Shown: positions 37,843 to 57,493, counted from the first letter of the stretch. The stretch is DNA of 64,000 bases from Candidatus Omnitrophota bacterium (GCA_003142795.1 PLNN01000019.1:51991-115990); one strand, 5' to 3'. The notes: a model not told the origin generated them from the sequence alone. Translations and numbers: made by a program.

Positions 37843-37957
37843 CTTATTAAGCTATAAAAAAGTTAGATTTTATGGATTGACAAGATTTTCAATTATGGTA
37901 TAGTTTATATACTATAATTAAAGCGATAAAAAGTCATTAATGATAGTTATCCACAAA

Positions 37958-37983
37958 GTAGTGGACGTTTAAACGTCCACTAC
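37958..37983 (+). promoter_or_regulatory. Perfect 26-bp palindrome (gtagtggacgtttaaacgtccactac) 18 nt upstream of the ORF3 start, a candidate operator or RNA hairpin
   Basis: gtagtggacgttt is the exact reverse complement of aaacgtccactac and the site is centred on tttaaa. It lies between the AT-rich promoter-like region (TTGACA 37877-37882, TATAAT 37913-37918) and the RBS aaggagag at 37988-37995. There is no downstream U-tract. Confidence 0.55.
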
Positions 37984-38000
37984 AACTAAGGAGAGTATAA

Positions 38001-41000
38001 ATGGTCAAACCATTATCCGGTTTCAGGAACACAATAGTCTGTAAAACCATCTCACTTTTTCTATTACAAGCTTTTCTCTTCTATAACACCTCCTTTGCAT
38101 CCATCGACAAGGCAGCCTCGCAGCCACTTACTAAAGATGTTAAATTTAAACAGGCATCCATTGATGATATAGGCATATCCAAAGACATAGGCACTATAAA
38201 GACGAAATTCAAAGGCAGCGGCGAAAAACTTCTTATCCACATCCAGGACGCCCATTGTAATTACGAAGCCCAGACGAATATCGCGAAGATCCTCGAAACT
38301 CTATCTAAAGATTACAATATTAACACAATATCGGTAGAAGGCGCTGACGGTTTTGTCGATACCGCGTGGTTCAAATCATTTCCGGACGCCGATATCCGCA
38401 AAGAGGTTGCCGACTACTTCATGAAGAAGGGCGAGATAACCGGCGCCGAATTCCTCTCTATTACAAAAGATTATCCGATCAAGCTGTACGGCGCAGAAGA
38501 CCGCGACCTATATATAAAGAACCTCAATGCCTTCACCCAGATCTACCCCCACAAGCAGGAGATAGAAAAATACCTCTTAGGCGTAAAGACCATCCTCGGT
38601 AAGCTTAAATCATACATCTACTCCAAAGACCTGATGAGTTTCGACGCTGTGACCGAAGACTATAAAGATAAGAAGAAGACGCTGTCTGATTACGCTAAGG
38701 TGTTGAGCATCCAGCTGAAACGCCATAATCTGGACCTTAAAGCCTATCCCGATTTCTCAAAGTTAGTCTATACGCTAATCTACGAAGATAAGATCGATTT
38801 CAAGGTCGTCGACCAGGAAAGGGCGAACCTTATAGATGCGATCTCTAAAGCCATTCCGAAAGACAAGCTCCAGGATATGGTGGTAAAAAGCTTCTCTTTC
38901 AAGACGGGCAAGATCACCGCGTCCGAATATTATGAATATTTAAAAACAATCGCCATAGATAACAATATCGATTTTATGAAATTGTATCCGAACCTTTCGA
39001 ACTATGTTATCTATACGAAACTTTACGACAAGATAAACACTGAACATCTCTTTGACGAAATAGACAGGATAAAGATCGCCGTAAAGGATAAGCTTTTCGA
39101 GAACGACGACCAGCGCATTTTAAGTGATGCATGGGATAACGTAAACATCCTCGTGGGATTTATCAACATCAAGTTATCGAATAAGGAATACGATTATTAC
39201 AAGGCCCACAGGGACAGGTTCAAGGTAGAATTTTTCAGTGATTTTATTAAATCCAAAGTCGGCCAATATAATCTCGCCTATAATATAGACGAGCCGACCG
39301 AGAACGTAAAGACGAACATTCCGCAGCTGGAGACATTTTACGAGACGGCTTCCAAGAGGGACAAGGTGCTTGTCGATAATACAGTCGGTTCTATGAAGAA
39401 AGAGAAGGCAAACGTCGCAGTCCTGATAACAGGCGGTTTTCACACTACAGGCATATCGAAGATCCTTGAGGGAATGAACATATCATATATAGTAGTATGC
39501 CCGACCATCACCAAAGACGTCGAATCTCCGTATATCCAGGTCCTCACAAACCAGAAGACACCGTTCGAGGAGATACTGACAGAGAGCGCAACGCCCACGA
39601 AGAAGGATTCACTGCTGGGACCGTATCTACTCGCACGTAAGATCATGATGCGTTTGAACGGTGAGAAGGGTGCAATCAAGGCGCTTCAGGGCGCCGTAAA
39701 CCAGGCCGGCGGAGAAGCCGATCCTGTCGGGGCGATACAGTCGTGGGTGGCGTTCTATGTCGATCGTTATGTAGCCGCGATCAGAAGTGATGAACGGGCA
39801 AATAATAGCACGCCGCAGTCACTCGAAACATTGCGCAATGCCTTCGTTTTAGCGTTTTACAACTCTTTAGACACGCCTCGTATTTCACCGGAAGAGAAGA
39901 AGCAATTCGAACGGGAAACGCCTCCGCTCATAGAAGTGGAATTCAATAAGCTTATCAATACACAGACCGCGTCCGAATCTGCGCCGACGCAGCAGAATAT
40001 TCCCACGATAGTCAGAAAATCGCCTACGGATAATTCTGACGAATTGGATAAAAACGGCTTAAGGAAGCCGGGCGATTCTAGGCGGGACTACCAGAAACCG
40101 GACTCGCTGATACGCAACATCGGTGAAGGACGCGCGGCGGCTGAAAAAGCCATAAAGAATTTTGATATCCAAAGCGATGCCCGTAAGGCTTTGATCAAAA
40201 TTTTTGTTGATAGTTGGACGGCGAGAGGCCCTGAAGCTTTCTCAAAAGATCTGGAACGTTTTCAAGCAGATCCTCTTGGATTTGCACAGGAACAGTTGCA
40301 AAACACGGAAAAGAGACTCACGGCCATCAGACAAAATCTGGATAGAGTAGCATATTCACCAAGTTCTAAAAAAAGGCCTGTTGCGCAAGATTTGAAAAAA
40401 GACTTAGAAAGTGCAATTTGGCTTAAAAACGCTTTAACAAACTTCATTTCGGAACTCGAAAACAAGAACACGGCAGGGGCGGACCATAAAAATACGGTGC
40501 AATCCGTGTCCGAAGCGCGCGCGGCGGCAGAAGCTGCTGTTGCCAAGGCAGGCCATGGCAATATTAAGTATTATTTAGAACCAGTGGACAGAAATCCTGC
40601 ATACAAATTTTTTATCGACTATTTAGTGGGGAAATGGAATAAAAACTCGTCTGTCGAGTTTACGCAAGCATTGGAAAGACTCAACGCATATCCTCTCGAT
40701 ATTTTTGATGAGGTTCAGGCTGCGGCGAAAAAAAATAGCGCAGATGCTATCATTAAATGGACCGGTGTTCATAAATCTACCGAACCTGGAAAACTACCAG
40801 CTCCCATAAGTCCTGAAGAGAAAAACCTGCATGATGCATGGGAGAGGGCAAGCGCTATAGAGGGCCAGTTTAATGGCTACATTCACCATCTCGAACAGGC
40901 AAGCTGGAAGCGCGCCCCGCAATCCATGCCGGTGAGGAAGGGTGCTGGCGATAAGGCGACTGACAGCGGCATATACGGTATGATGGAACTTAACGATGCC

Positions 41001-44000
41001 GAAGTCGCGGCGATGCGCGAAATACAACGCCAAAGTTTCGTGGAAGGAACTTATAGAATAGCCACGGCCAAGGAGCTTGGGTTTACGGAATTGGGCGATT
41101 TCCGGTTTGTCGTGCATTACGGCCTCGAAGCCAGGATAGAGAAATATAATAAAGAGCACGGAACGAACCTTAAGACCGACAGGATCGACGCAGGCACAGG
41201 CGGCGAGGAATACGGTTATGGGCTCAGGCAGGCGCATATAAGCGCATATCGCTTTAATTCTCTGATCAGAACGAAATCCGGCAAAAGAGTGCTGGAAGTA
41301 ATAGCCACTCACGAATCTTTGGGCCACATCGCGATCGCGAATAAAGAAGGCGGCTCAGCTGCCTATAAAATGAAGCTTGCCGACCCGGCCATGAACGAAG
41401 AGGATGTCGTGGACTTTCATGTCCCCGGAGCTAATACAAGATGTGCATACGACTGGCTTCCAGGCAACATTACCATACGGCAGTTATTAGCGCAGATAGA
41501 TGAAAGCCGCAAAAACGATGAATTATACCAGATGGAAGAAGGGCTTCTCACCGATACCGCTTATGGTACAGCCGCTCGTGACGAGATAGTAAGACTGAGA
41601 AAAGAAGGCAAGGATTATGAGGCAGGCGAATTTGCAAAGTTAGTTTACGCAAGAAGAGCCAATATCGACAGGATGAAGAAAGTGCTTACAGAGCCTTATA
41701 AAGATTATGACGTCATCATCATAAGCTCTACAACCGAAGCTGAAGCAAAAGACCAGGAAGCTAATCTCAGGAAAATTTTCGGCGGCATCAAGACATCGAA
41801 CAATGCGATGGGTAACAAGGTGTGCGTCCTCTCTATGCTTGACACTTCGGAAGGTAACAACCTGATAGGGCAAAATGTTACAGAGGCCGAGGCAATAGAG
41901 GCGTTTAAGAAATGGGCAACCGAGAACGGCTTACCGGAAACGGACCTTACTAAGCTCCAGGCCGAAAAAAAGGTAAAAGTGGCAACATATCATAACGGCG
42001 GCAAGGCCGAGAGATTTTCTCCGGCCGGCCAGGCATTGAACCTGTCAAGGGCAGACCAGCTGCTTGTTGGAAGCGTCTTTGACATGAATGGCAAACCTAT
42101 AGAATTAAATCTTCTTTTGACCGTCATTCTATCCACTGCATTTAACGCTGAAACGAACGATGGATCGATGCACGATGTGTATTGGGCGAACCAGGCAGAA
42201 GTTGGCGCAGTGTTGAGTGTGATCAGGCATGGATACGTCTTTAACAAATTTGCAGTTGCGGTGCCGGCAAATCCCAGCATGAAAGACCTGTATGATTACG
42301 GGACGTTGATCGCGACAAAAGATGGCCGTATACTGAAGTTCCTCGGCAATAAGAAACTTACCGAGAAAAATAGTGCCGGCAGGTATATCCCAACCTCAGA
42401 TCCATACTGGCGTGCTAAATATGACGAGCTGATGGAGGCCGCCAAAGAGGGCAGGGCATATTTTGATTACGGTTCATTCAGCATGAGCTTAGATATGCAG
42501 AATGCTCTTCTCGAATATTGGCGCGACGTTAAAAAAATATTTACTGTTATGCAGAATGATGTAAATGGCAGAGCAGGTATATCGCGCGAGATCGATCCTC
42601 AGATGACCCAGAATATTGTTCCGATAGTAAATGGTGTAATGGGCCATGAGGCTGAGCTAAGTCAGCTTCCGACTATCACAGAATTGGATTCAGCTGCTGA
42701 TAAGAACGCGATTTTGCACAAAGCCTATCTTGCATTATTAAATATAATGGCTCCCGAATACAAAACCATATTAGAAGGTCTATATACGAAAGCAAAAGAG
42801 GATTTAGTAAAAAAGGAAAAAAAGGAGCCCGGGAAGAAAGATAACGATCAGAATCTCCAGGCTATATACGAAACGATCGAATTTTTCATCAGATACAAAG
42901 ATACTGTTAATTTAATGAAAGGATTTGGTATAATAGATTTCGGGCCCGGCAGCCATTGGTTCGCATATAAGAGGCTGCTCGATATGGGTAACGAGAAATT
43001 CTTTATGTTGGCCGATATGACCGGGCAGAGCATGGAACTCGAGCCCAATGGTAATGATCTACGTGCGACCGCGACTGTCCAGGATAAGGTAAAGGCTGAA
43101 GATGCCCGCAGGCTAAGGAGTATACCAAACAGCGCTGTCTGCGTATTTGAGGTGAACGGGCAAAAGGTAACGCTTAGCGCCGGGCAGGCGGCTAAAGGGT
43201 GGGAAGGCCATGGCGTTAAAGTAAAGGGCTCTATTATACAAGGGAATACCGTTCTTCTGCCCGGCTCAGAGATCGTAAATAGCGGCGTCAATAATTCCCA
43301 GGGCCGGATAGCGGCTGCAAATTCATATATAGATTCATCGACCGCCCCGAAAATAGAGGCTAAGAATAGCATTGTAGTAAACGGCGTTGATGGAAAACTT
43401 ATTATCGCGAATAGCGAAATTGTAACCGACGCGTTCAGGCCGGTTATACATGACGACAGGTTCGCGGACGGGCATACGAGGATGCGAGCGCCCGTAGGAT
43501 ACGATCCTAAGCCGGGCGATGAAGCCCTGGCGGCCAAAATGTCGGATGCCGTCAGGTTCGGCGATAACAAATATTCATTTGAGGAGATCAGGAATATGTC
43601 GTGCGACAAGGACGCGAACAAGGCGATCGAGAAGACGGCAAGAGATAGTGTACATGCGAGGCTCCAAATGATATCCGAACGCTGCAAATATTGTATAGAT
43701 CATTTCAAGCTGTTGAAATTCGGAACAAGCGGATTGAGAGACAATGACTCCGCTCTTACCGATATGGAGGTATATATAAACGTCCGCGGCCTTGTGAGAT
43801 ATCTTACCGGCATCAACTCGAGGATGGACGTGCCGGACCATATTAAGAAACTGGTATATGAAGGAGCTATTCAAAAATTGTCCGACATAGTGCTTGCAGG
43901 AGATCTCAGGCCGTCCACCCCCCGGATTTTAAAAGCAGTCGCAGTTGGTATAGTAGCGGAAGGCGGCGCGCCTGTATATATAGGAAAACAGCCAACGCCC

Positions 44001-47000
44001 CTGCAAGTTCTCTACTCATTGAAGAAATCAATGGCAGGATTCATGACTACAGGCAGTCATATCCCGCTCGGTATGAACGGCCTTAAAGGTAACAGGCCAA
44101 ACGGTGAGTTGTTAAAACAAGAAGAGAAACTCATCCTGACGGAAGTCGCCAAAGTGAGAAACGGGGAATATCTTCAAACCGATGCCGAAAGCATGTTCGA
44201 TAGGAACGGATTTTTCAGGACGGACGGCAAGATTTCCGGAAACCAGCGCAATATCATTTCGAAAGCCGAAGAAGCCCTTGATCCGGAGAATCCGAATAGA
44301 CGCGAAGCGGAGAAACTATACGAAGACCGTTATTTAGGCGGTCTGGGAAGGTGCCTCGAGGGCGTCGACGTTCTCTTCTGGCAGCATTCTGCGGTTGGCC
44401 GCGATATCATTCCCGATATTATGAGAAAGATGGGAGCCAACATTACGACCGTTGCGCCTCTCGATGTGAGTAAAGGCGAATTCTGCTCACTAGATACGGA
44501 AGATGTTAAGCCGCAATTCAAGCAGCTGGTAAAGAAATTGATGCAAGATAATAATAAGAAGGTCCTTATCACAACCGATGGCGATTCCGATAGGCCCGCC
44601 GTATTTATACTGGCGAAGAATCCTTTTAAGAATGGCGAGGAAGACGTTTATTATTTAACCGGAGATAAGCTCGCTATAATTACGGCGTTGTTATTGAAGC
44701 CCAAGTTCTTTGCGATACCGGTTACGTCAAACCATATAGCTCTGCAGAAATTACGTGATGCGGTCCCCGGCATTAAAATAGAGCTTACAGATGTAGGCTC
44801 TCCTTATATTGCCGAGGCTATGTATGCGAATAACGAAGGCGATCAGGCCAATGGCTGCGAGGTCAATGGAGGATATTTCATAGGGTCTCAGGTATTCAGG
44901 ATGCCCGAAGAAACAATAGCGAAAATAAGGGCATTGAACAGGAGCTCCTCTTCTCCGCTCGCTGAGCCCACCGGCGAATTTTCATATCTTCCTTCGCGGG
45001 ACGCGTCAATCGCGTTAATAAGCATACTGCTTTCGGCGAAACTGAAGAATATGACGGTCGAGGAGTTGATAAGGGACACGTTCAGCGGAAAATACGCGGC
45101 TGAGACATCGGCCGGGCTCGTTGAGAACGTATCCGATAAGCAGCGCACGCCCGGATGCGAAGATTACCAGAAAGAGATGGGACCTGCAATAGCGAAGAAC
45201 CTTTCTCCGAAAAACGCAAATATACTCGAGGTGATATTTGAGGGAGATGAAGTAAGGTATGTGCTTAAAGACGATGCCTCAGGAAAAAAACGCGATGCCG
45301 ACAAGCCGTTGAAGGCAGAGGCATTGGCTATAAAGTCACGGCTTGAGGCGAGATTGAAAACTATAGCCGGCTTGCAGGGCCAAAATATCGTACAGATCAA
45401 TTTTAAAAACGGCGTTCGTGTATTCTGGTCGAACAGGGAAACTATACATTTACGAGCGTCCAGCAACGCGGCGCAGTTCAGGGGATATACCCTGGCACCC
45501 GGCGAGATGTTCGATCCCCGGCCGGAGCAGATGGTTGAAGAGATGACCGCGCCAAGCACCGGGCCGCTCGTTAAAATAATTCAAGATTATATAAATGAAA
45601 CTACCGGCAAAGCTGTCTCTACTGCCGCGGCATCGGCCTCGTCTTCCAGGAAATCGCCCGGCAGGTTCGCGACATCGGCAGACGCGCCGCAGGGCGGACA
45701 CTTGCGCGAGCTAGTTGCTATCGGTACAAAATACTCGCTTGATTCGGTCGATCCCGACCTGATAGATAGAGAGATCGCCAACGGAGCCACCAGTGCTACG
45801 TCTAATCCTATTATAATATCGAACCTTGTCAAAAAAGTGCTTGCGAATATCGAGAAGAACGGCGGTCCGCAGACTGAATTCGAGAAAGGAATTTATTCGA
45901 TCCTCGCAAAATCTCCCAATGAGGAAGTCGCGACCAGAGAAGCGACCAAATTTATCATAGGTTTCGTCGCGGCAAAATTCAGGCCCGTTTATGACAGAAC
46001 AAGCAAGAATGACGGATATGTAAGCATTGAAGTCGATCCTCGGCTAGAGGACACGAAAGAAGGCCCGTATGCAACATGGACGCATGAAGAGCGGGTGGCC
46101 GAAGTTAAGCGTCAAGCCGTCGAATTCAGCAAGATCGCGCCTAATATCCTGATAAAGATACCTGCTACTAAAGCCGGACTTGACGCCCTGGAAGATCTCG
46201 CCTATCAAGGCATAAACCTTAACGTTACTCTTATATTTACGCCTGAACAGGCTTATGCGGCAAGAGAGAATGTATGGAAAGGCCTCCAAAGAAGAAAAGC
46301 TGAAGGGAAGTCCTTAGACATAAAGAGTGTTTATAGCATCTTTGTCAGCCGGACCGATGATTATACGGCTAAGAAAGCCCCGGATCTGCCTTCAAATGTT
46401 CAGGGAGAGATTGGAATATACATCGCGAAGCTCATATATCTTCAGAATAAAGAATTCTGGCAGGATAAAGGACTTTCCTTGAGCCAGGAAATGATATTTG
46501 CTTCTACCGGCAGTAAATCAAAATTGGTAGCCGGGATCAAGACCGAAGCGGATGTTTTAAAACTAGTCGAATTAGCGACATCCGGATCCAAGGAAGCAGA
46601 AGATGCGATGAATGCATTAAAAGAAATGTGTAGATATGTCTATGAACTTGCAGGAGACGATATTCAGACCAATCCGCCCCTGACAGCATTTGCCGTGAAT
46701 GTCGCACCATTTGCGATAACCGAAAAAAGAGTAGGTGCATTACCTGCTTCCGAAGTTCGGAAGATAATGATACAATATTTAGATTCTCACATGCAGGAAC
46801 TTTATGAGGCACTAATGACTGATGGCATTGCGAAATTCGTGAATCCGCAAGTTGAGTTGGTAAAGAACGTTGCAGCGGCTATGGCAAAAATTCCGAGATC
46901 GCCTGCCGCAACTCCGGAGAATATCGTGAAAACGCTCGTAGATAATCGTAATCCTCAGGCTGCTGTGGCCGGCATATTCGATAATCGCCAGGAGAGTGAA

Positions 47001-50000
47001 TATCTGCCTGCCCTGAGTGCAGTCGCTAATGAATTGAATAAGCGCTACGCAACTCTTACGTCCGATCAGAGGGATGAGCTTTGGCCGGTATTAGAAGAGT
47101 TTTATTCTACCCTGACCAGACGAGCGTGGAGCACCGTAAATGACGTAAATATAGCACGCGGCCTTCAGATAATGACCGGCAATACCATTGCCATTCAGAA
47201 TCTGATCGAGATAGGCCTGAGCGGAGCAAAGAGTATACAACTTACCGATAAGGCCGACGAGATGTTGAAAGCCGAAGATAAAGATAGAGGGCCAAGCTAC
47301 ATTAAAGCTTTTTCTATTCCTAAATCAATAGGCATTGCCGAAAGCGAAGGCCGCCCGGGTGTTTATTGGAGAGGCGCCGAAGGCATTACAAAACTGGGAC
47401 CCAATGGCGAAAATATATTGCCGTGGGCCGCATACGCAGCGAATCAGCATGATGAATATAAGAAATTCATAGGTTATACTATGCTTCATGTGAGCGATTT
47501 TCACGTTACTGTGTTTGTAAATCAATTTCTTCCAAATTCGATCCAATATACGAGCACGGGCGCAGGCCACTATCAGGGAGATAAACTTGATGTAAAAGTT
47601 GTTACAAGAGGTGCCCTTCGCCAGATGCAGGACGTATATAATGCAACCGGCAATCGGACAACAACGACAGCGCAGGATGCAGGAAAAGGTAGATGGGTAT
47701 TTGCATCTCCGCGCACAGTCGACTATACCGTTCCGCTTAGGCCAATAACGGTATTCAATGATGAAAGCATATTACCGCTGGGTACAAATATGCGCGCAAT
47801 CGGACCTGAAACAGTGCAGGTTGCTCCTTACGCGACTATTGATTTCAATGGTAAGCCTGTATTGGTCAAAGCTGTCAGCGACGCTCCCGTGTTAACGCAA
47901 CTGGAATCATATCCCGACCGTAGCGCCGTCCTGACTAGAGCGCCGGTACAAATAGCAGAATCGGAAAGGGTAACTGTTTTGGATGCGAACACAGTAACAG
48001 CTATAGGAAGGTTGAATGATCTTATCGAATCCGGACACCCGCTTAATATCACATCAACATATAATTTAGGAAAGAACGGTTACAAGTGGGGCGAGCCAGC
48101 CGGAGTGAGTTTCATAATCGGGCTTGAAAGTAATACTCTGCCAGCCGTCCTGCAGGAAGCCATCAGCACCAAAGACCGCGTTGCCGAAAGATTGATAGCC
48201 GCAGGCGTGATAGACTTGGGTGAAGGCTATAGCCTTCCGACGAGCGTATTGTCATCGTATTTTGGCCAGGAGCCTGAAATTACAACTAAGGTGCTTGCTT
48301 CAGCGATGCCTCTGTCTGTGCAACTGCATACTTTTGCCGAGATGATAATCCCTCTCGAAAAAGGGACTGCATGGATAGGGGTCAAAGAGAATGTCACAGC
48401 CGAACAATTAATAGAAGCGGCTAAAGAAGGCAGGATCCAGGATGTTCTGCAGGAAGTTGAGCTTGAGACGGGAGTGCCGATGATCGTTCCTGCTTATCTG
48501 CCGCATGCTTACGGAAAAGTGAGGGTCTATGAGGTTAAGGCAGTTACGCCTCAAGAAGACGCTACCGGCACAACCTCATTCTTTGACAGGCTGAAATATT
48601 TAAGCCCTGAATTTGAAGCTCAATTGAAGGCTTTGAACATTACATCGTTACAGATGACTCCGGAGCAGTTAAGACAGCTCAATCCCGGAAGAGAGAAGAA
48701 AGACGTTCTTACGATGCCTGAAGCAACTTTGGCCGAGACGAAGAAACGATTGGCTGAGGCCGAAAGCTCAGGCGCTTTGAATAAAACGAATATCGAGAAT
48801 TTGAAGTTTACACCGGTCATTGTGAGCGCGCCATCCATGAAGAATACCGAAGAGGCGAGGCTTGAGGTAATGGGCGTGGCAGAAGGACGTTTTATAACGG
48901 TCCGTTATACGGTTGCGGAGAATCAGTCGATCCAGTCGGGCCCGATTCTATCCGGCAGAAAGCACACGCTTTTTGTATCAGAAGGCGAGATCGAATTAAA
49001 TACCGATCAGGGCGTTACTACAACATTGAAAAGAGGCCAGGATATAACTGTGACGCCTAATATGCAGTATTACACCATCAGGTCACTGAAAGGCACGGCC
49101 GTTATTTATACACAGGTTCCGCCGAAGAAAGAATTGCCCGCAACTGAAACCGCGAGGCTTGCAGCGCAGATCAATAATAATCAGAAAAGCCTGAAGGCTG
49201 CCGTATCGAAAGGAAGAGAGGTCATTCTCGCCCCGAACGACAGGACCTCCGAAAGATTATCTGTTACAAGCAGCGCGAAACAGGATATCCCGCAGGCGAA
49301 AGAGAAAGAGGTGGCCTTATCGCTCGAAGACGGCAAAGCGGCTATCGTTAAAGAGAATGGCGATACGGTAGAATTAAAGCCTGGTAATCCCATAATCGTT
49401 CCGGCAGGCATGCCGTTATCGATACAGTCACCGGTTGTGGCGATAGTGAAAATTGCTTATACGGAATCTCGTGAAGAGAGCGCTTCATTTACGTCCATTA
49501 ATGTCACAAAGCGTAATCTCGCGGCGATCACAGCCACAGGTAAGATAGACCTGCTGGTTAACGACAGCCTTTACCAGAAGGACGGCGACTATGCCAATTC
49601 TGTCGCAAAAGAGCAGGAATTCTGGAAGGGGTTGAACGTCGACGTCGTATTGGTAAAATATAGCGATGAGCTTGGATTGAGCGACGCGGCCGATAAGTCG
49701 ATCAGGAACGGCGCTATTCCCATTTTGGTCGGAACGGCAGAAAATTTCCAGAAGGCGGATGTTTCTGATCCAAAGATAGCGAAATTGTTGTTGAAGGCAA
49801 AGATATTGCCTCCAATCGATCTGGCGAAGATAGAAGGTCGCCGCGGCTGGTTCTTTACAAGAGAAATAGAAGCCAGCGCGATCCTTTTGGCTGCTACAAC
49901 CGTCCAGAATATACGAGATCATGATCCGATAGCGGAAGACCTGCAGAAATTGATGCAGAAATTCGGTTTGCCGATAGACGACATCAACCAGCTCTTATGC

Positions 50001-50177
50001 ACGATGTCTTTCGAGGAATTGCAGAAGCTGGGAAGCGATTTCCTCGATGCGAATGGCATGCCTAGCCTGTTAGCGAAGATAGAACTGGTAAAACGGCTAT
50101 TGATAACGCTGCCTGCTAAACCATTCAATGCCGACGACGATCTTCACAGGCGCCGCGAAGTTCTCTGGAGCGTGTAA
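38001..50177 (+). CDS. Giant secreted multidomain protein (4058 aa): N-terminal conserved domain, NTP-transferase-like motif, LbH, phosphohexomutase domain, transaldolase domain and cupin-like segments
   Basis: Uninterrupted ORF with a strong RBS (aaggagag, 6-nt spacer, ATG 38001). The N-terminal signal-peptide-like segment is [22 protein letters not shown]. The embedded enzyme domains are listed as separate features. Confidence 0.85.
   Translation: [4058 protein letters not shown]
38225..39515 (+). other. Conserved N-terminal domain, paralogue of ORF2 28415-29700
   Basis: See the ORF2 domain feature. Protein identity across the domain is about 30-35% by eye. Confidence 0.35.
41987..42031 (+). 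other. Degenerate NTP-transferase glycine-rich motif ([15 protein letters not shown]) in ORF3
   Basis: Aligns with ORF2 IIAGGKGTRFSPGG but has GKAER in place of GxGTR. Confidence 0.3.
43200..43440 (+). other. Hexapeptide-repeat (LbH) segment in ORF3
   Basis: [70 protein letters not shown]. Confidence 0.4.
43700..45520 (+). other. Complete alpha-D-phosphohexomutase (PGM/PMM superfamily) domain embedded in ORF3
   Basis: It has the N-terminal [10 protein letters not shown] motif, the catalytic-serine loop [11 protein letters not shown] (equivalent to TASHNP), the metal loop TTDGDSDRP (DGDxDR) and the phosphate-binding loop [15 protein letters not shown] (RxSGTEPxxRxY-like). It is collinear with the free-standing paralogue at 58964-60622. 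Confidence 0.8.
45700..46560 (+). other. Complete transaldolase-family domain embedded in ORF3
   Basis: It is collinear with E. coli TalB. [13 protein letters not shown] aligns with [28 protein letters not shown] aligns with [57 protein letters not shown] aligns with [40 protein letters not shown], with the Schiff-base Lys conserved. [11 protein letters not shown] aligns with ISPFVGRILDW. Confidence 0.8.
48900..49450 (+). other. Cupin-like segments in ORF3, possibly mannose-6-phosphate isomerase type II-like
   Basis: [57 protein letters not shown] and [34 protein letters not shown] have the G(X)5HXH...E...G...P.G..H...N shape. No strict motif was verified. Confidence 0.3.
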
Positions 50178-50196: not shown

Positions 50197-52446
50197 ATGA
50201 GTAAGACAATTAAGAGGGCGCTCGGCGCCCTCTTAATTTTAGTGTTTGCCGTCCAGACCTGCTATTGCGGGGATATTTCATCCGCTCCCTCAAAAGCACG
50301 CACAGACAAACTTGCCCCGAAAACCCTTTTCCAGAAAGCGTTCGCTCCCGAAAATTCCGAAGAATTCAGGAATTCCATCCTATCCGATGTCCGTTTGCTG
50401 ACACTCTCATTTTCTATCGCATTTCATTTTCTGGAAGACCGTCCCAACTACCCGAATTTAAAAGGCCCCCACGACCTTAATACTATCGTAAGAAATGAAT
50501 TCAGGAATGACAAGTCTCTTATAGATACTTTGGACAACAACATCAATCTTGCCGGTGTTCGCCACGAAGACGGCATAGTCTATGTCCCGGTTAAACGGGA
50601 CGGCAAAAATTACGAAGTCAAAATATGCACGAAGAAGGCATTCGACTCGCTCGGCTCAATAGAATCCCAGTGGTGCGTCTCGCCGCGTTTCGTAATACAG
50701 GCAGTTGAGATAAAAGCGAATCGAGACAAAAGGCGCGAGGCGCTGAGCGGCAATGATGCGGCAGTCCTCGCAAAATTCGAAGAGACGATAAGAAGGTTAG
50801 TCGGTGAAGGCAGGACAATAATCTGGTTTTCCGACATGGATGGGACGTTTACGGCTTCCGGCGGCAAGGCCGCCGATCGAGCCGTGCGAAACGTGCGGTG
50901 TATAACCACGCATAAAAATGATTTTTTTGTTGTCATAACGGGCGTTGGTTCCAACGCTTTGCGCCGACAGATACTCGACTTAAGCCAAAGGGAAGCAATG
51001 TCGGCAGACTCTGAAAGGGATTTGAGAAATCTGTTCGGCGCGTCGAATAACGGTTCCGAAATATATGTCTATAGCCTGAAAAACCACACTTTTGTGCGGG
51101 AATCATATGTGAATATAAAAGATTTTCTCGGGGGTAAATATCTGGAGCTTATAAATGCCCTCAACAGGTGCATACTTGGGATGAAGATGCAAAAGATGCT
51201 TAAAGACGTGACGGGTCAAGACGATTTTAGAGGGAGTCCGATCGACGCACGGCCAAGCCCGGAATACCCGTCTCAGATATCGTTAATGGTCCTGGGCAGT
51301 AAGGCGACGGATGAGGACAAGGATCATTTCGAAAAAGCGGAGAAAGATCCGAAGTCGCCGTATTACGAGGTGAGGGAGAGGGTCTATCTGCCTTTTCTTA
51401 AAGAAATGCTGCGCTCCTTAGGGATAAATGTCGAAGTGAGGGTATCCGGCAAGAGCTCCCTCGATATCACGGTCATCAACAAGGCGGATGCCATCCGGAT
51501 GATACTTTACAGGCTTAAAAAAGTCGGCAGGCTGCCAAAGAAAGAGGCGCCCGTAATCATCTTCTCCGGCGACGCCTTCGGCGCCAACGAGAACGATGAG
51601 CCGGCAATCGATGTAGCGGACATCGTCATAAACGTCGGCAAAGATATCCCGCGCGCAAGATTCGAAGGCAGGGAATATTTCTCTCTTCCCGATACCAACC
51701 AGGACGGCCTTAATAAGTTTTTAGAAGCATACATCATGGCGAAATTCCCGAATCCATCCATGAGCGACAACGAGCCACTCATCGGTAACGGCTTTAACTC
51801 TGAGGACATGGCAAGAGACGAAATAATAAAGACATCGGAAGAAAAAAGGATGGAACGCATCCATGATATCCACATGAGTCTCTATCCTGGCGTTCCCGAA
51901 GGCAAAACCCTTTATCGCGTAATGCAGGTCGAACATGTCCCGATTTCGATGCGCGCGAAACTTATCCCGGCCATTTCCAGATTGAATAGGGAACATCCGG
52001 AGTTGCAGGAAAAGATAGAGATAGTGGAAGGGAAAGATATTATCGGCAGGGTAAAAGAACTTATAAATGACCCGAACAATATAGTGATGGTCGCCGTAGC
52101 GGACGAGCAATATTTAAAGGACCTTCCCGAGCTTCCGGATACGAAGGATAAGGAAAAAAGCAGGTTAAGGGCGCTTGTTTTCCGGGGAGATGCCCAACTG
52201 GAATGTGTCCTAGCCGCGCTGAGGGCTCTTTATCTGGATGATATCGGCGCATTAAGGGAACTTTATGAGTTGGCGTCAGGCAATAAATTGGCAGCGAGCG
52301 ACCAGGAGATTATCAACGCTATAAACAATCCTCGGGAACTTGCCCGTAAGATCATATTCAATTTTAAGCCTATCCGCGTAGAGACACAGGACATGCAGGA
52401 GAGGCTTGACAGAAGGCTCGTCGAGCTGATCCGCGAGGCGGCATAA
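50197..52446 (+). CDS. Secreted HAD-IIB family hydrolase-like protein, about 750 aa
   Basis: RBS acgagg 9 nt upstream of ATG 50197. The ORF-track start at 50128 lies inside ORF3 and is rejected. The signal peptide is MSKTIKRALGALLILVFAVQTCYC. HAD motif I FSDMDGTFT is perfect (50833-50847). Motif III K...IIFSGDAFGANENDE is IIB-type, as in MPGP, SPP and T6PP. Confidence 0.7.
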   Translation: MSKTIKRALGALLILVFAVQTCYCGDISSAPSKARTDKLAPKTLFQKAFAPENSEEFRNSILSDVRLLTLSFSIAFHFLEDRPNYPNLKGPHDLNTIVRNEFRNDKSLIDTLDNNINLAGVRHEDGIVYVPVKRDGKNYEVKICTKKAFDSLGSIESQWCVSPRFVIQAVEIKANRDKRREALSGNDAAVLAKFEETIRRLVGEGRTIIWFSDMDGTFTASGGKAADRAVRNVRCITTHKNDFFVVITGVGSNALRRQILDLSQREAMSADSERDLRNLFGASNNGSEIYVYSLKNHTFVRESYVNIKDFLGGKYLELINALNRCILGMKMQKMLKDVTGQDDFRGSPIDARPSPEYPSQISLMVLGSKATDEDKDHFEKAEKDPKSPYYEVRERVYLPFLKEMLRSLGINVEVRVSGKSSLDITVINKADAIRMILYRLKKVGRLPKKEAPVIIFSGDAFGANENDEPAIDVADIVINVGKDIPRARFEGREYFSLPDTNQDGLNKFLEAYIMAKFPNPSMSDNEPLIGNGFNSEDMARDEIIKTSEEKRMERIHDIHMSLYPGVPEGKTLYRVMQVEHVPISMRAKLIPAISRLNREHPELQEKIEIVEGKDIIGRVKELINDPNNIVMVAVADEQYLKDLPELPDTKDKEKSRLRALVFRGDAQLECVLAALRALYLDDIGALRELYELASGNKLAASDQEIINAINNPRELARKIIFNFKPIRVETQDMQERLDRRLVELIREAA

Positions 52447-52500: not shown

Positions 52501-53529
52501 ATGAAGACACTCAGATCTGGCATCATTGGATGCGGCACCATCTTTCCGATGCACGCCCAATCGATCAAGAATATAAAAGAAGCACGGCTTGTCGCCGTAT
52601 GCGACATTAAAAAAGACCGCGCAAGGGATAAAGCTAAAAAGTATGCCTGCGCCGGTTATACCGATTACAAAAAGATGTTCGCCGAAACACATCTCGACGT
52701 AGTCCATATCTGCACTCCTCATTACCTTCACATGCCGATGATCATCGAAGCGGCCAAACGGAAAATAAACGTAATAAGCGAAAAGCCGATGGCCCTCAAC
52801 CCGGAACAGGCCAAAAAAGAGATCGCGGCAGCAAAAAAGAATAAAATTACTTTTGGTGTAATATTCCAGAACAGGTTCAATCCCGGCTCGCAGCTTGTAA
52901 AAAGCAGGATAGACGACAAAAGTCTTGGTAAATTAAAAGCCGCGAAACTCGTTCTCACATATCATAAACCGGACAGTTATTATAAGAAGAGCGACTGGAA
53001 GGGCAGGCTCAACAAAGAGGGCGGCGGCGTAGTAATTGACCAGGCCATTCATTACCTGGATATAGTCCGATGGCTTATCCCAAGCCCCATCGGCTATGTC
53101 GAAGCGAAATGCTCGAACCGCATGCACACATTTACGGATGTCGAAGACTCAGCCGAGGGCATAGTTAAATTCAAGAACGGATTTTACCTGTGTTTCTACC
53201 TGATCAATTGTTATTCATTCGATGACGATCCTTTTATCGACATCGATTGCGAAAAGGCAAGGGTTCACATAGTCAAAGACTCGGCTTACATAGGATACAA
53301 GAACGGCAGGAACGAGAAGGCTGAGCCCGGAGCGGATGAATATATAGATTATGGCGACGGAGTAAGGGATTACTGGGGTTATTGCCACTTTAACGAGATA
53401 CGCGAGTTCTATCGCTCATTGGCTGCAGGTAAGAAGCCCGCCGTAACCGCGGAAGACGCTAAAAAGACACAGGACCTCATATGGGCTATATATGAATCGT
53501 CCAAACGCGGCAAAAAAATATATCTATAA
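52501..53529 (+). CDS. Gfo/Idh/MocA family NAD(P)-dependent oxidoreductase
   Basis: N-terminal Rossmann motif GIIGCGTIFPMHAQ, the EKP motif (ISEKPMAL), and a C-terminal alpha/beta dimerisation region typical of the family. Confidence 0.85.
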   Translation: MKTLRSGIIGCGTIFPMHAQSIKNIKEARLVAVCDIKKDRARDKAKKYACAGYTDYKKMFAETHLDVVHICTPHYLHMPMIIEAAKRKINVISEKPMALNPEQAKKEIAAAKKNKITFGVIFQNRFNPGSQLVKSRIDDKSLGKLKAAKLVLTYHKPDSYYKKSDWKGRLNKEGGGVVIDQAIHYLDIVRWLIPSPIGYVEAKCSNRMHTFTDVEDSAEGIVKFKNGFYLCFYLINCYSFDDDPFIDIDCEKARVHIVKDSAYIGYKNGRNEKAEPGADEYIDYGDGVRDYWGYCHFNEIREFYRSLAAGKKPAVTAEDAKKTQDLIWAIYESSKRGKKIYL

Positions 53530-53538
53530 AATAAGATT

Positions 53539-53580
53539 TTGATTTTTTAGTATGATTTTAGTATAATAATCATACTTTTT
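53539..53580 (+). promoter_or_regulatory. Near-consensus sigma-70 promoter (TTGATT-17-TATAAT) overlapping an inverted repeat and T-tract (agtatgatt/aatcatact, then tttt)
   Basis: The -35 TTGATT is at 53539-53544 and the -10 TATAAT at 53562-53567, with an exact 17-bp spacer. The -10 sits in the loop of a 9-bp AT-rich inverted repeat (53549-53576) followed by TTTT. This could act as a promoter for 53619, a weak terminator for 52501, or both. Confidence 0.45.
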
Positions 53581-53618
53581 GTTAGATTAGAACCAAAATT
53601 TTAGAAAGGGAAACAGCA

Positions 53619-54656
53619 ATGGCAGTAAGGATCGGAATTATCGGCTGCGGGAAGATAGCTGATAGGGCAAGTTTACCGAATCTGGTGAACTATAGGGGGA
53701 AAGCGGAAGTAAAGGTATTGTGTGATGTCGATGTGTCAAAAGCTAAGGCTCTGAAAGATAAATTCGAACTATGCGGCGCCGATGTGGTAAAGGACTGGAA
53801 GAAGCTCATTACCAGAAAAGACATCGACGCTGTTTTTGTCGATACTCCAAATTATTTACATGAGGAGATGACGGTAGGGGCCGCGGAAAATAAGAAGCAT
53901 ATCCTTGTGGAAAAACCTATAGCTATAACGGTCAAGAGTGCCGATAAAATGATAAAAGCCGCCAAATCTAACGGCGTCTATCTTATGGTCGAGCAGACGC
54001 ACAGGTTCAATCCCATTCATCAGGCGGCGAAGAAGGTCCTTGAATCGGGGATGCTCGGGAAGATACATAATATAAGAGGCAGGATCGGGCATGCCGGCCC
54101 GGAATACTGGTCTGAGGGCAAGGCTCACTGGTTCTACGACAAGAAGAGATCCGGCGGCGGCGCCATGGTAGATATAGGCGTGCACATCACAGACCTCATC
54201 AGATGGTTCGCGGCTAAGCCGATCACTGAAGTATTTGCTACGATAAGGACTATCGAAAAGGGCGTAAAGGTTGACGACAACGCGACGGTACTATTAAAAT
54301 TCGAGGACGGCTCAAAGGGCGAGATAGAATGCAGCTGGACGACAAGGCCGTATGAGGTCATGACGTTCGCTTACGGCACAAAAGGCAAGATGATGACAAA
54401 CCTCGGCGCTGATAAACCGATCAAAGTGGTCATAGCCAATACGAATAAAGGTGAAGATCCGAACTGTACCCTCGAAGAATTATATCCTGAGGTCGGACCG
54501 GGCGGCGACTGGGAAAATTCAGTCCATTACTTTGTAGATTGCCTGGTTAAGGGCGAGCGGCCATCCGTTTCGGGCGAAGAAGGCCGTGAGACGATCCGCA
54601 TTATCAGCTCAGCGTATGAGTCGAATGAATCGGGAAAGTGGGTAAAAATAAAATGA
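53619..54656 (+). CDS. Gfo/Idh/MocA family oxidoreductase
   Basis: RBS aaaggga upstream. Motifs are IGIIGCGKIADRA and VEKPIAI, followed by the conserved HRFNP region. Confidence 0.85.
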   Translation: MAVRIGIIGCGKIADRASLPNLVNYRGKAEVKVLCDVDVSKAKALKDKFELCGADVVKDWKKLITRKDIDAVFVDTPNYLHEEMTVGAAENKKHILVEKPIAITVKSADKMIKAAKSNGVYLMVEQTHRFNPIHQAAKKVLESGMLGKIHNIRGRIGHAGPEYWSEGKAHWFYDKKRSGGGAMVDIGVHITDLIRWFAAKPITEVFATIRTIEKGVKVDDNATVLLKFEDGSKGEIECSWTTRPYEVMTFAYGTKGKMMTNLGADKPIKVVIANTNKGEDPNCTLEELYPEVGPGGDWENSVHYFVDCLVKGERPSVSGEEGRETIRIISSAYESNESGKWVKIK

Positions 54657-55468
54657 AGCTCGGGCTTTGCACTTGGTCATACAACAGGACATTTGCCGCA
54701 AGAAAAATGGACCTGGAAAAACTGATGCACGTATGCGCGGATGATCTGAAAGTGGGCGGCATGGATATAATCGACGTTCATTTTAAGTCAGGTGACCCCG
54801 CCGTTCTTTTGAAAGACATGGATTATCTCTTAAAGATAAAAAGATTAGCGACGGACCTCGCGATAACGATATCGGCAGTCTCGCCTGGAAACAGCTTTGG
54901 CAAGGATAAGGAGTCCGATGAGAAGGCGGAAGTAGAAAAGATAAACAAATGGACCGATGTGGCCTATGTCCTCGGCTCGCCGAACTTAAGGATATTCGCA
55001 GGATGGGCGCCAAAAGAGAGACACGAAGAGCTTTGGCCGAAGGTCGTGAAGAGCATTAAAGAGTGCGCCGCTTATTCGGCGAAAAAAGGCATTACGCTCG
55101 CGATCGAATCTCACAACGGCGGCGGATACCTTCCGACGTCGATAGAGACTCACAAGCTGCTCAATGACGTGAATTCTCCCTGGGTTAAGCTGAATCTTGA
55201 TACAGGAAATTACCAGGACCCGGATATGTATGACGCCCTGAAAAGATCCATGCCTTATACAACACACATGCACTGCAAGATCCATGAGCTTTCGAAAGAT
55301 GGCAAAGAGCTGCAGTTCGATTTCGATAAGATATTCAAGATACTAAAGGAAACAAATTACCGCGGTTTCTTCAACGTAGAATACGAAGGCAAGGAAGAAG
55401 AATTGTCCTATGTTCCGATCGCGTTCGCGATGGTGCGGCAGTTCATGAAAAAATACGAGGTATTCTGA
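54653..55468 (+). CDS. Sugar phosphate isomerase/epimerase (xylose-isomerase-like TIM barrel)
   Basis: The start ATG at 54653 overlaps the upstream stop (ATGA), indicating translational coupling. The upstream in-frame ATG at 54638 is rejected. MKLGLCTWSYNRTF and the E/H metal-ligand pattern (ESHNGG...DTGN...EYEG) are typical of AP-endonuclease-2/XylA-like TIM barrels. Confidence 0.75.
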   Translation: MKLGLCTWSYNRTFAARKMDLEKLMHVCADDLKVGGMDIIDVHFKSGDPAVLLKDMDYLLKIKRLATDLAITISAVSPGNSFGKDKESDEKAEVEKINKWTDVAYVLGSPNLRIFAGWAPKERHEELWPKVVKSIKECAAYSAKKGITLAIESHNGGGYLPTSIETHKLLNDVNSPWVKLNLDTGNYQDPDMYDALKRSMPYTTHMHCKIHELSKDGKELQFDFDKIFKILKETNYRGFFNVEYEGKEEELSYVPIAFAMVRQFMKKYEVF

Positions 55469-55499
55469 GATATAGGGACCGGTAGCCAGAGGATAACGG

Positions 55500-56411
55500 A
55501 TGAAAAAAAAGCGCGGATTTTTCGCAAAGCTTAACGAGCAGAAGTGGTCATTCCTTTTTATAGCGCCCGCCGTGCTTCTGTTCGTCATATTCGTATTGGG
55601 CCCATTGGTCGCTTCCCTGTACTGGTCATTCACGGAATATAACGGCATCACCGCTCCGAAATGGGTAGGCCTGGCCAATTACAAGAACATATTCTTTAAC
55701 GATCCGCGTTTTTGGACGTCCATCCGGAATACGGTATTTTACACCGTAGGCATAATTCCAGCGGGAGTTATCTTATCACTGCTCCTGGCAATGGCCATTG
55801 ACCAGCGCATAAGGTTCAAGAATTTTTTCATGGTCATATATTTCATCCCGTCGGTAACATCGGTCATAGCGCTCTCAGTAATATGGAAATGGCTCTTCGC
55901 CGGAGAGAAATACGGGCTCATCAATTACTTTTTGATATCGATCGGCCTGAAGCCGATAGACTGGCTGATGAGTCCTATCTGGACGCTGCCCGCTATCATT
56001 ATAATGTCGATCTGGGCCGGCATAGGATACAACATGATACTCTTCCTGGCGGGCCTGCAGACCATTCCCACGAGTGTATATGAGGCGGCCGACATTGACG
56101 GCGCGAATACCTGGGAGAAATTCTGCAACATAACGCTCCCTCTCTTAAAGCCGACGATGGTCTTTGTAGTCATAATGGGCTTCATAGCGTCATTCCAGGT
56201 CTTTGAACGTATATATATAATGACCGAATCGGAATTCGGCATAGGAGGCGTGCTCGATTCCGCGCTCACGGTAGTCGCGTACTTGTACGACATGGGCTTC
56301 AGGAAACTCCAGATGGGCTATGCCTCGGCGCTCGGTTACATAATCTTCATGGTAATATTCGTGATCACATTGATAAACCTGAGATTCATAAAGGCAAAGG
56401 TCGACTATTAG
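55500..56411 (+). CDS. Carbohydrate ABC transporter permease (MalF/UgpA-type)
   Basis: Six predicted TM helices and the EAA loop YEAADIDGANTWEKFCNITLPLLKP. Confidence 0.85.
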   Translation: MKKKRGFFAKLNEQKWSFLFIAPAVLLFVIFVLGPLVASLYWSFTEYNGITAPKWVGLANYKNIFFNDPRFWTSIRNTVFYTVGIIPAGVILSLLLAMAIDQRIRFKNFFMVIYFIPSVTSVIALSVIWKWLFAGEKYGLINYFLISIGLKPIDWLMSPIWTLPAIIIMSIWAGIGYNMILFLAGLQTIPTSVYEAADIDGANTWEKFCNITLPLLKPTMVFVVIMGFIASFQVFERIYIMTESEFGIGGVLDSALTVVAYLYDMGFRKLQMGYASALGYIIFMVIFVITLINLRFIKAKVDY

Positions 56412-56423
56412 TAAGCCCCTTCA

Positions 56424-56452: not shown

Positions 56453-56510
56453 TTCCATCTATTTATATAAAATATAACTGATAAACAATACACACAAAGA
56501 GAGGAAAATA

Positions 56511-57455: not shown

Positions 57456-57493
57456 AGCTTAAAAGCGCAAAAAATAAAAAGGAGAGAACACCA

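Follow-up and report, generated by a model that had tools for sequence, protein, structure and literature searches.

A predicted transaldolase embedded in a modular giant protein with a signal-like N-terminus from Candidatus Omnitrophota

The 64,000-nucleotide stretch of a Candidatus Omnitrophota bacterium (GCA_003142795.1, PLNN01000019.1:51991-115990), referred to below as the window, contains three very long open reading frames (ORFs) on the plus strand of its first 50 kb, the third of which, ORF3 (38001-50177), encodes a modular protein of 4058 amino acids (aa) with a signal-peptide-like N-terminus and, deep in its interior, a complete transaldolase (TAL) domain. Judged by its residues and its predicted fold, the segment aa 2566-2963 is probably a catalytically competent transaldolase, which would act as a tethered activity in a modular carrier specific to Omnitrophota, beside other enzymes of hexose phosphates. 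New here are the TAL as a type of cargo and a sharply definable protein family, composed of a signal-like peptide, a domain of the TIKI/EreA/ChaN fold, enzyme cargo and a tail; already known are the sugar-metabolism domains in long signal-peptide-bearing Omnitrophota proteins, and as an enzyme the TAL is nothing out of the ordinary within PF00923. From these features we infer the catalysis, the cooperation between modules and the location of ORF3.

The transaldolase module

An intact transaldolase domain inside the 4058-aa protein had been proposed in a preliminary description of the window, made by a model from the sequence, and the profile search bears this out: the Pfam model PF00923 (TAL_FSA) matches aa 2579-2955 at E 4.8e-36, its 125 bits standing against a gathering cutoff of 27, and is covered nearly whole, from profile position 2 to 283 of 285. 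The interval 45700-46560 assigned to the domain in that description does lie within TAL, and takes in only about its first 70%, the domain running from 45696 to 46889. The features of this part of ORF3 are as follows:

45606-45695, plus strand: linker before TAL, rich in Ala, Ser and Pro (aa 2536-2565), in frame, read from the sequence
45696-46889, plus strand: TAL module (aa 2566-2963), complete (beta/alpha)8 barrel with a C-terminal helix
45798-45809, plus strand: motif TSNP
46023-46046, plus strand: motif SIEVDPRL
46146-46169, plus strand: motif ILIKIPAT
46155-46157, plus strand: codon for Lys2719, equivalent to TalB K132 and predicted to form the Schiff base
46221-46241, plus strand: motif NVTLIFT

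All four motifs had been named beforehand and were found where they had been placed. The alignment of the ORF3 domain with seven free-standing relatives, the corresponding domain of the homologue P0002 and E. coli TalB, whose reference sequence was confirmed to be the same as in PDB 1UCW, is collinear, as had been supposed, and relates nine TalB positions to ORF3: D17 to D2584, N35 to N2602, E96 to E2677, K132 to K2719, N154 to N2741, T156 to T2743, S176 to S2779, F178 to F2781 and R181 to R2784. The catalytic residues (D2584, E2677, K2719 and T2743) are thus conserved, the catalytic Lys and Glu among them. The TalB residues D17, N35, E96, T156 and S176 are those mutated in the PDB entries 1i2n-1i2r, and F178 and R181 those mutated in 3cwn and 3kof.

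An extended alignment of 101 sequences, with 100 free-standing TALs, has 76 invariant columns, all of which are kept by the ORF3 domain, including that of Lys2719 (K160 in the alignment numbering). The residue at TalB position 178 is taken by us, also in view of the titles of PDB 3cwn and 3kof, to distinguish a transferase (Phe) from a fructose-6-phosphate (F6P) aldolase (Tyr); read in this way, Phe2781 would indicate a transaldolase and not an F6P aldolase.

The structure prediction and superposition that had been suggested as a check agree with this assignment. The AlphaFold2 model of aa 2560-2970 (mean pLDDT 94.7, pTM 0.92) has eight units of a strand and a helix each, besides a long helix at the C-terminus. 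When it was compared with the PDB by Foldseek, transaldolases came out best: 3clm (E 1.8e-18, TM-score 0.81), 3r5e (0.80) and TalB (about 0.71). By sequence, too, the best solved relatives are the transaldolases of N. gonorrhoeae (3CLM) and C. glutamicum (3R5E), and the nearest relatives are free-standing TALs of about 350 aa from the PVC group and others, with 41-48% identity over about 90% of the query. The ORF3 TAL is a member of the family and not an equivalog of any curated NCBIfam subfamily.

A search for Met codons (ATG only) in the linker aa 2536-2565 and at the TAL start found none, so that a separate TAL product from an internal ATG is unlikely. The metagenomic origin of the window and the free-standing state of the nearest TAL relatives would be compatible with ORF3 being a chimeric assembly, or a run of distinct genes that errors in sequencing or frame had joined, with TAL as a truly free gene. 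Such an origin is scarcely credible, as the frame of ORF3 runs for 12.2 kb without a stop codon, the in-frame Ser/Ala-rich linker precedes TAL, and hundreds of family members have the same bookends. Moreover, ORF3 has a Shine-Dalgarno sequence with ATG and a promoter-like site of its own, and the identical 4058-aa protein was called on four independent contigs (e.g., Logan SRR7151659), which argues that ORF3 is real; these contigs, the collinear P0002 from another study and the lack of a Met before TAL led to the rejection of an assembly or gene-call artefact.

Conservation and recruitment of the transaldolase

Among 120 relatives of ORF3 the TAL segment is shared by one, the 3966-aa protein P0002, which is collinear with ORF3 throughout, i.e., in the N-terminal domain (N-domain), region C, PGM, TAL, region E, cupins and tail. 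The identity between the two proteins amounts to 65% in TAL, 51% in the N-domain, 48% in region C, 39% in region F, 38% in region E and 29% at the C-terminus; TAL is the most constrained part of ORF3 and P0002 among the alignable modules.

A second occurrence was found in P0245, a complete minimal family member of 1651 aa with a signal-like N-terminus, the N-domain, a spacer, TAL at aa 864-1215 and a C-terminal tail, in which TAL is the sole recognisable cargo. This domain (PF00923, 152 bits) is 31% identical to that of ORF3 and retains the Asp, Asn, Glu, Lys, Asn/Thr and Ser/Phe/Arg motifs; it belongs to another subfamily, and TAL has therefore been recruited at least twice. When JGI metagenome contigs were scanned with patterns that single out the embedded lineage, no further members came to light, the three loci obtained having 41-45% identity, which is the range of free-standing TALs. 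The search for TAL-domain proteins listed only free TALs of about 350 aa and missed P0002, so that it is unusable for counting the embedded ones. TAL is a rare cargo within the family, found in ORF3, P0002 and P0245.

Other modules of ORF3

Between the conserved ends of ORF3, TAL is accompanied by the following regions:

39591-41450, plus strand: spacer (aa 531-1150), mostly helical and poorly conserved
41451-43700, plus strand: conserved module (aa 1151-1900) with the glycine loop GGKAERFSP and a beta-helix-like C-terminal part, present in about 24 of the 120 relatives
43713-45536, plus strand: PGM/PMM module (aa ~1905-2512), Pfam PGM_PMM_I and II
46968-48020, plus strand: module aa 2990-3340, common to P0001, P0002, P0003 and others
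48021-49580, plus strand: cupin-containing region (aa 3341-3860), with Cupin_2 at aa 3655-3690 and MPI_cupin/Cupin_3 at aa 3767-3805

The PGM/PMM module matches the phosphomannomutase PDB 4hjh with E 6.7e-31, and its loops are intact: the phosphoserine loop TGSHIP at nt 44046-44066 and the metal loop DGDSDRP at nt 44574-44597. With the free-standing PGM/PMM encoded at 58964-60622 of the same window it shares 30% identity along its whole length. The cupin scores lie at or just under the gathering cutoffs. A possible QxH motif like that of type-I phosphomannose isomerase (PMI), LSVQLH, is found at nt 48312-48332; the assignment of the region to type-I PMI was not retained, the BLAST match to the PF20511 region of P0022 being weak (E 0.27), and the region is kept as isomerase-like, weakly.

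The spacer aa 531-1150 has no family match, and its coverage by homologues falls to about zero at aa 700-950. For the module aa 1151-1900, a sugar-1-phosphate nucleotidyltransferase was considered and rejected, since hhalign against the PF00483 regions of the relatives aligned only a 23-aa Gly-loop, with a probability of 1.9%. The searches of PDB sequences with aa 981-1900 and aa 2971-4058 gave nothing significant, and aa 2990-3340 is without a Pfam or PDB match. The Pfam models found no RTX repeats, cysteine protease domain (CPD) or PGI domain (PF00342) in ORF3.

Proposed catalysis and the points against it

By analogy with the TalB mechanism, Lys2719 would form a Schiff base with F6P or sedoheptulose-7-phosphate (S7P), Asp2584, Glu2677 and Thr2743 would serve the acid-base steps, and the phosphate would be held by Ser2779, Arg2784 and the ASTGSK loop, while Phe2781 instead of Tyr would keep the enzyme a transferase. 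Together with the PGM/PMM module before it and the isomerase-like cupin modules after it, TAL may form a covalent set for the interconversion of hexose-1-phosphate, hexose-6-phosphate, F6P, and S7P with glyceraldehyde-3-phosphate. It follows from this arrangement that the polypeptide would tether enzymes with common hexose-phosphate intermediates. The fused metabolon suggested in the preliminary description is plausible in this respect, as it fits the PGM/PMM with intact loops upstream, the cupins downstream and the sugar-phosphate cargo of the relatives.

Several observations speak against a competent, cooperating transaldolase. The cutoffs of the NCBIfam transaldolase equivalogs are missed (NF002881, 126 vs 367 bits; NF003026, 112 vs 344 bits); the phosphate-site positions S226/R228 of TalB have no residue-for-residue match in ORF3, nor in the free-standing relatives; three lineage-specific insertions of about 12, 4 and 25 aa in TAL are shared with P0002 only. 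The predicted export signal puts a sugar-phosphate enzyme away from its usual substrates, and the window holds cytoplasmic counterparts, namely the free PGM/PMM and a GH130 protein, neither with a signal peptide, because of which the embedded copies may have a different role. As for the cooperation of modules, the part upstream of PGM and aa 2990-3340 are without assignment, and the link of the cupins to PMI is weak.

The same insertions, the scores under the equivalog cutoffs and the predicted extracytoplasmic location, where substrates would be lacking, are what could be adduced for a TAL barrel kept for the binding of a sugar phosphate or ketose, or as a structural element, in a surface protein; a repurposed sugar-phosphate-binding module had been the other suggestion of the preliminary description. 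This is improbable and is disfavoured here: every tested catalytic or phosphate-binding residue and the whole set of 76 invariant positions are retained, TAL is the best conserved module in comparison with P0002 (65% vs 29-51%), and the independently recruited TAL of P0245 keeps its Asp, Asn, Glu, Lys, Thr, Ser and Arg motifs as well.

The Omnitrophota family and its cargo

The search with the whole ORF3 gave hundreds of homologues of 2200-5568 aa, all of the source-named ones being from Candidatus Omnitrophota/Omnitrophica. By BLAST segment mapping, aa ~10-550 are common to all 120 relatives at about 50% identity, and the PGM/PMM region (aa ~1900-2500) and the last ~200 aa are each found in about half of them. 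The cargo of the relatives includes, by Pfam, PGM/PMM, PFK (PF00365), PGK (PF00162), class II FBP aldolase FBA-II (PF01116), GlpX FBPase (PF03320), PGI (PF00342), cupin-type PGI (PF06560), UDPGP (PF01704), NTP_transferase (PF00483), CofD (PF01933), and ROK kinase with HAD; the relatives thereby add about 12 further enzyme families to the PGM/PMM, TAL and cupins of ORF3. In P0001, the closest relative, the parts flanking the TAL position are collinear with ORF3 and about 109 unrelated residues take the place of TAL, and P0003, 75% identical over the first ~700 aa (BLAST), bears other cargo; thus, the cargo behaves as cassettes.

With the N-domain as query, 1.84 billion cluster representatives (50% identity) were searched exhaustively by HMMER; this gave 8471 matches at E <= 1e-3 and 3574 at E <= 1e-30, nearly always N-terminal, in proteins of about 500-5568 aa. 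Among the GTDB species representatives, the N-domain matches are metagenome-assembled genomes of Omnitrophota, some of them labelled 'uncultured Planctomycetia' and one Auribacter; several of the GTDB genomes have more than one paralogue, and the best N-domain match is 69% identical. On these matches, the family is restricted to Omnitrophota and comprises a signal-like N-terminus, a predicted TIKI/EreA/ChaN-fold domain, swappable enzyme cargo and a conserved tail.

The constant N-terminal domain and tail

The two constant parts of the family are located in ORF3 as follows:

38148-39590, plus strand: family-defining N-domain of ~480 aa (aa ~50-530), with a TIKI/EreA/ChaN-fold alpha/beta core (aa 64-165 and 472-501) and a helical insert of ~300 aa
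49581-50174, plus strand: conserved C-terminal region (aa 3861-4058), aligned in about 55 of the 120 relatives
50100-50174, plus strand: family tail LITLPAKPFNADDDLHRRREVLWSV at the end of ORF3

The N-domain has a core with the parallel beta-sheet of the TIKI/EreA/ChaN superfamily fold, and its family-invariant residues, D83-A84-H85, E113, R453 and G478-G479-x-H481, directly follow the strands 77-81, 109-112 and 472-476. None of the Pfam and NCBIfam models detects it. The site of RRSP, formed by two His and two Glu with an Arg, consists of E3900, H3902, E3930, R4001 and H4030, and that of Bcr135 is built likewise (PMC6254334). Compared by order only, D83-x-H85, E113, R453 and H481 of the N-domain follow the RRSP/Bcr135 site, with Asp and not Glu as the first acid. 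From the rest of the superfamily (TIKI, erythromycin esterase, ChaN, TraB and HopBA1) the ORF3 domain differs by this Asp and by the ~300-aa helical insertion between the core strands. Its residue pattern makes it a probable active hydrolase, peptidase or esterase.

Nearly all of the 120 relatives carry the tail motif, which comes in two related types: ...LLxxMPIKPFDxxxQLxxRRKVMWSV or ...ILPRIxPxDxxxAxEAYKAAxxALxSL. A sorting signal, a substrate of the N-domain and a head-to-tail docking peptide are candidates for its role.

Signal-like N-terminus and cellular location

The location of TAL depends on the reading of the first 33 residues of ORF3:

38001-38099, plus strand: signal-peptide-like N-terminus (aa 1-33), with an n-region (K3/R9/K15), an h-region I17-Y28 (12-13 residues) and S31-F32-A33/S34

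This N-terminus has the sequence MVKPLSGFRNTIVCK-TISLFLLQAFLFY-NTSFA/S, the slash standing between A33 and S34. The earlier claim that the protein bears a signal peptide holds as a Sec-like pattern, recurrent in the 120 homologues, and is rule-based, the call resting on the n-region, the h-region, the residues at -3/-1 and the charge bias. By these rules ORF3 has a basic n-region, an h-region within 7-15 residues, small residues at -3/-1 and a higher charge on the N-side than on the C-side of the hydrophobic stretch, and the same design is found in 120 of 120 homologues. The mean net charge in the family is +4.0 in the 15 residues before the uncharged stretch and -1.0 after it; A/S/G-x-A occupies -3/-1 in at least 80 of 115 family N-termini. 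The AlphaFold2 model has a helix at aa 12-31, followed by a disordered stretch (31-48). No convincing internal transmembrane (TM) segment was found in ORF3 with Kyte-Doolittle windows; the two windows above 1.6 (aa 3798 and 2224) were rejected as TM helices, since they are parts of the cupin and PGM folds, with Pro or Lys among their residues. A Tat signal was also rejected: ORF3 has F-R-N, and RR occurs in only 11 of the 115 N-termini, so that the signal is not a canonical Tat one. By the usual rules, the N-terminus would be a Sec-type signal or an N-in/C-out signal-anchor.

The conservation of this peptide follows the pattern [KR][KR]S[FL][FL]xK-x-[IV]-S-[LI]...F(-9)...[SY]-N(-5)-[IV]-[SAG]-F-A(-1), with K/R at -19 in 89% of the family N-termini, F at -9 (F25) in 85%, N at -5 (N29) in 70% and A at -1 (A33) in 79%. 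The peptide is far more conserved than ordinary signal peptides, and may be a dedicated targeting signal and not a generic Sec leader.

The rules of topology tip the balance towards the bulk of ORF3 lying on the trans side of the cytoplasmic membrane; the N-in/C-out topology, together with the free cytoplasmic paralogues next door, favours an extracytoplasmic role. On the other side, the PFK, PGK, ROK kinases and nucleotidyltransferases of relatives with the same N-terminus need ATP or NTP, and would thereby require a cytoplasm, either the own one or that of a victim.

One tentative explanation is that of an exported, self-processing carrier resembling the MARTX toxins: ORF3 would be exported by Sec, the N-domain would act as a protease cutting the linkers or the tail, and the modules would act in the periplasm, at the surface, in prey or in a host, where they would convert or drain pools of sugar phosphates. 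It agrees with a competent transaldolase as far as catalysis is concerned and adds the export and the processing. The positive-inside asymmetry and the family-wide -3/-1 pattern agree with it, as do the lack of a convincing internal TM segment, the conserved ends with cargo shuffled even between relatives as close as P0003 and P0001, the nearby free cytoplasmic PGM/PMM paralogue, which suggests another location for the embedded copy, and two preprints, in which similar domains of giant Omnitrophota proteins are taken to be extracellular and a proteolytic processing is proposed. Less favourable are the cargo of the relatives that depends on ATP or NTP, both of which are absent from the periplasm and the medium, and the sugar phosphates themselves, which are not normally extracellular. 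Besides, no conserved cleavage motif was found at the module junctions of ORF3 and P0002, nor any secretion or injection machinery within the window, and ORF3 is free of RTX repeats and CPD; the protease role of the N-domain is putative, and its superfamily includes esterases and non-enzymes.

Equally tentative is a cytoplasmic, membrane-tethered metabolon, in which the N-terminal helix would tether the 450-kDa polypeptide, or would be an unusual targeting element, and hexose phosphates would be channelled between the modules. All the cargo types are cytoplasmic enzymes of central carbon metabolism, several of them ATP-dependent; GH130, sugar transporters and a mannanase 6-13 kb downstream could provide hexose-1-phosphate for the PMM, then the isomerase and TAL; and the unusual conservation of the signal, above all of F at -9 and N at -5, hints at something beyond generic Sec targeting. 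One preprint (bioRxiv 10.64898/2026.06.07.730766) deems sugar-metabolism modules compatible with the cytoplasmic face in TM-only proteins. The same preprint revises its own cytoplasmic reading for a metabolic giant bearing a signal peptide, the charges and the -3/-1 pattern fit an N-in/C-out signal and not an N-out anchor, a stable anchor would be expected to be longer than the single hydrophobic segment with its about 12-13 residues, and the signal-less PGM/PMM and GH130 already supply a cytoplasmic route, all of which count against such a metabolon.

Relation to known systems

The ORF3 TAL shares with the free-standing TALs of about 350 aa (PF00923; 3CLM, 3R5E; TalB 1ONR/1UCW) the predicted fold (TM-score 0.80-0.81), the collinearity from the first strand to the C-terminal helix and the active-site set Asp/Asn/Glu/Lys/Asn/Thr/Ser/Phe/Arg. 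Unlike them, it begins at residue 2566 of a 4058-aa protein with a signal-like N-terminus, has the three short insertions and is without its own start codon. That TAL tolerates fusion is shown by the bifunctional TAL/PGI (NF007080, ~949 aa), in which it is naturally joined to another F6P enzyme. ORF3 is not its member, as only the TAL part matches, with 88 bits vs a cutoff of 712, and PF00342 is missing; the NF007080 enzyme, in contrast to ORF3, is cytoplasmic, two-domain and signal-less.

The giant proteins of Omnitrophota are treated in two preprints. In bioRxiv 10.1101/2023.11.21.568195 ('Archaeovorins'), the glycolytic domains TPI, PGI, FBPase, PGM/PMM and FBA are described in long Omnitrophota proteins, and in bioRxiv 10.64898/2026.06.07.730766 'multi-enzyme metabolic clusters' are defined in giant ones; both encounter the same location paradox and lean to an extracellular or periplasmic place, with possible proteolytic processing. 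Such giants are similar to the ORF3 family in their phylum and in the sugar-metabolism Pfams (PGM/PMM, PGI, FBPase, FBA, ROK) that tile proteins with signal peptides or TM segments. They differ in size, being at least 10,000 or at least 30,000 aa, whereas the ORF3 family has about 500-5600 aa, one N-terminal hydrophobic segment and defined bookends. With respect to the definition of a multi-enzyme metabolic cluster, ORF3 has the Omnitrophota origin and the many enzyme Pfams, and falls short, with 4058 aa, of the length of at least 10,000 aa. Searched by keyword, neither preprint gave a match to 'transaldolase', 'TIKI', 'TraB' or 'erythromycin', and the passages retrieved from the second one for 'C-terminal' say nothing of a conserved tail. 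Nothing relevant was obtained by full-text literature searches on transaldolase as a protein of Omnitrophota or as part of secreted multidomain proteins. The embedding of TAL, which had been called unexpected, is so with regard to its place deep inside a signal-like protein; much of the surprise is removed by the huge modular Omnitrophota family, by the two preprints and by the TAL fusion NF007080.

The MARTX toxins of Vibrio and its relatives have thousands of residues, conserved ends, variable and recombining central enzymatic modules, and autoprocessing. ORF3 resembles them, by analogy only, in size, constant ends and a variable enzymatic centre. It differs in having no RTX/glycine-rich repeats and no cysteine protease domain, and in having an N-terminal Sec-type signal and central-carbon enzymes where MARTX have a C-terminal signal for the type I secretion system (T1SS) and toxin cargo. 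The TIKI-fold domain RRSP occurs in MARTX toxins (PMC6254334); there the fold is a cargo, whereas it is the constant N-terminal part in the ORF3 family.

The gene and its neighbourhood

The long ORFs and the candidate expression signals around ORF3 are as follows:

157-27915, plus strand: ORF1, 9252 aa
28147-37842, plus strand: ORF2, 3231 aa, a tandem paralogue of ORF3
37877-37904, plus strand: promoter-like site 5' of ORF3, TTGACA-16-TATAGT (11/12, with a TG extension), consensus match only
~37957-37983, plus strand: inverted repeat GTGGACGTTTAAACGTCCAC in the 5' leader of ORF3, found by eye, coordinates approximate
37988-37995, plus strand: strong Shine-Dalgarno sequence AAGGAGAG, core AAGGAG, 7 nt 5' of the ATG at 38001, read from the sequence
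38001-50177, plus strand: ORF3, the 4058-aa modular megaprotein carrying TAL
50208-50238, plus strand: hairpin with a 14-bp perfect stem and then T-rich sequence, 30 nt 3' of the ORF3 stop

The promoter-like site is located in the 158-nt gap between ORF2 and ORF3, and the inverted repeat lies between it and the Shine-Dalgarno sequence. The hairpin falls within the signal-peptide-coding part of the next ORF (749 aa, likely start 50197), which is without a Pfam match; it may be a terminator or an attenuator overlapping a coding start.

ORF2 has the same signal-like N-terminus as ORF3 and an N-domain 34% identical to it, and its sole Pfam match is an ARMT1-like damage-control phosphatase (aa 2561-2814); the protein ends with ...LILVRTNA. 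ORF1 lacks the family N-domain, and its end, ...KVVLMNA, resembles that of ORF2. It has hydrophobic N-terminal segments, a CofD-like region (aa 443-616), a methyltransferase (4283-4394), TPR blocks (~2115-2175 and ~3903-3977) and HEAT repeats (3659-3743), and its C-terminal 4626 aa have zero Pfam matches.

On the 3' side of ORF3 a set of genes like those for mannan utilisation was found:

52501-63841, plus strand: the whole mannan-utilisation-like set
56511-57455, plus strand: GH130 mannoside phosphorylase, without a signal peptide
58964-60622, plus strand: free PGM/PMM, without a signal peptide
61505-63157, plus strand: GH113 mannanase with an F5/8-C domain, signal-bearing, secreted
63176-63841, plus strand: OmpR-type response regulator

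The set also includes two GFO/IDH/MocA oxidoreductases, a xylose-isomerase-like TIM protein, two ABC permeases and an MFS_2 transporter. A route from hexose-1-phosphate through hexose-6-phosphate and F6P to TAL would be chemically coherent with the modules of ORF3 and with these mannan genes.

Long multi-enzyme genes cluster also at the locus of P0002 (L002; ENA ERZ24794666 NODE_1313), like in the ORF3 window. The 5' neighbour there, whose length is 6241 aa or more, carries domains of the types HAD, dCMP deaminase, HD, PIG-L, NTP_transferase and FBPase, and on the 3' side there are a 1792-aa protein with a starch-synthase domain and a GFO/IDH/MocA gene.

Significance for the biology of Omnitrophota

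Transaldolase is a textbook cytosolic enzyme, here encoded as a cassette within a protein for which all topology rules would predict passage across a membrane, and the same holds for the glycolytic and gluconeogenic toolbox in thousands of related Omnitrophota proteins. Through the family definition, the 'multi-enzyme giant proteins' of the phylum, until now treated descriptively, become accessible to concrete searches, and ORF3 and the 1651-aa P0245 are small enough to serve as experimental test cases.

If the proteins are cytoplasmic, they would be among the most extensive natural cases of covalent enzyme tethering in bacteria, with another role for the conserved signal-like peptide. If they act outside, the export of central metabolism by host-dependent nanobacteria would be a new strategy of predation or parasitism. 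A more specific version, suggested by the analogy with MARTX and rather doubtful, is a very large Omnitrophota family, not defined before, of Sec-exported carriers in which the TIKI-fold protease and the tail are constant and central-carbon enzymes are released or displayed outside, possibly in prey or a host; were it true, ultra-small, host-dependent bacteria would re-route or harvest the sugar-phosphate pool of their victim.

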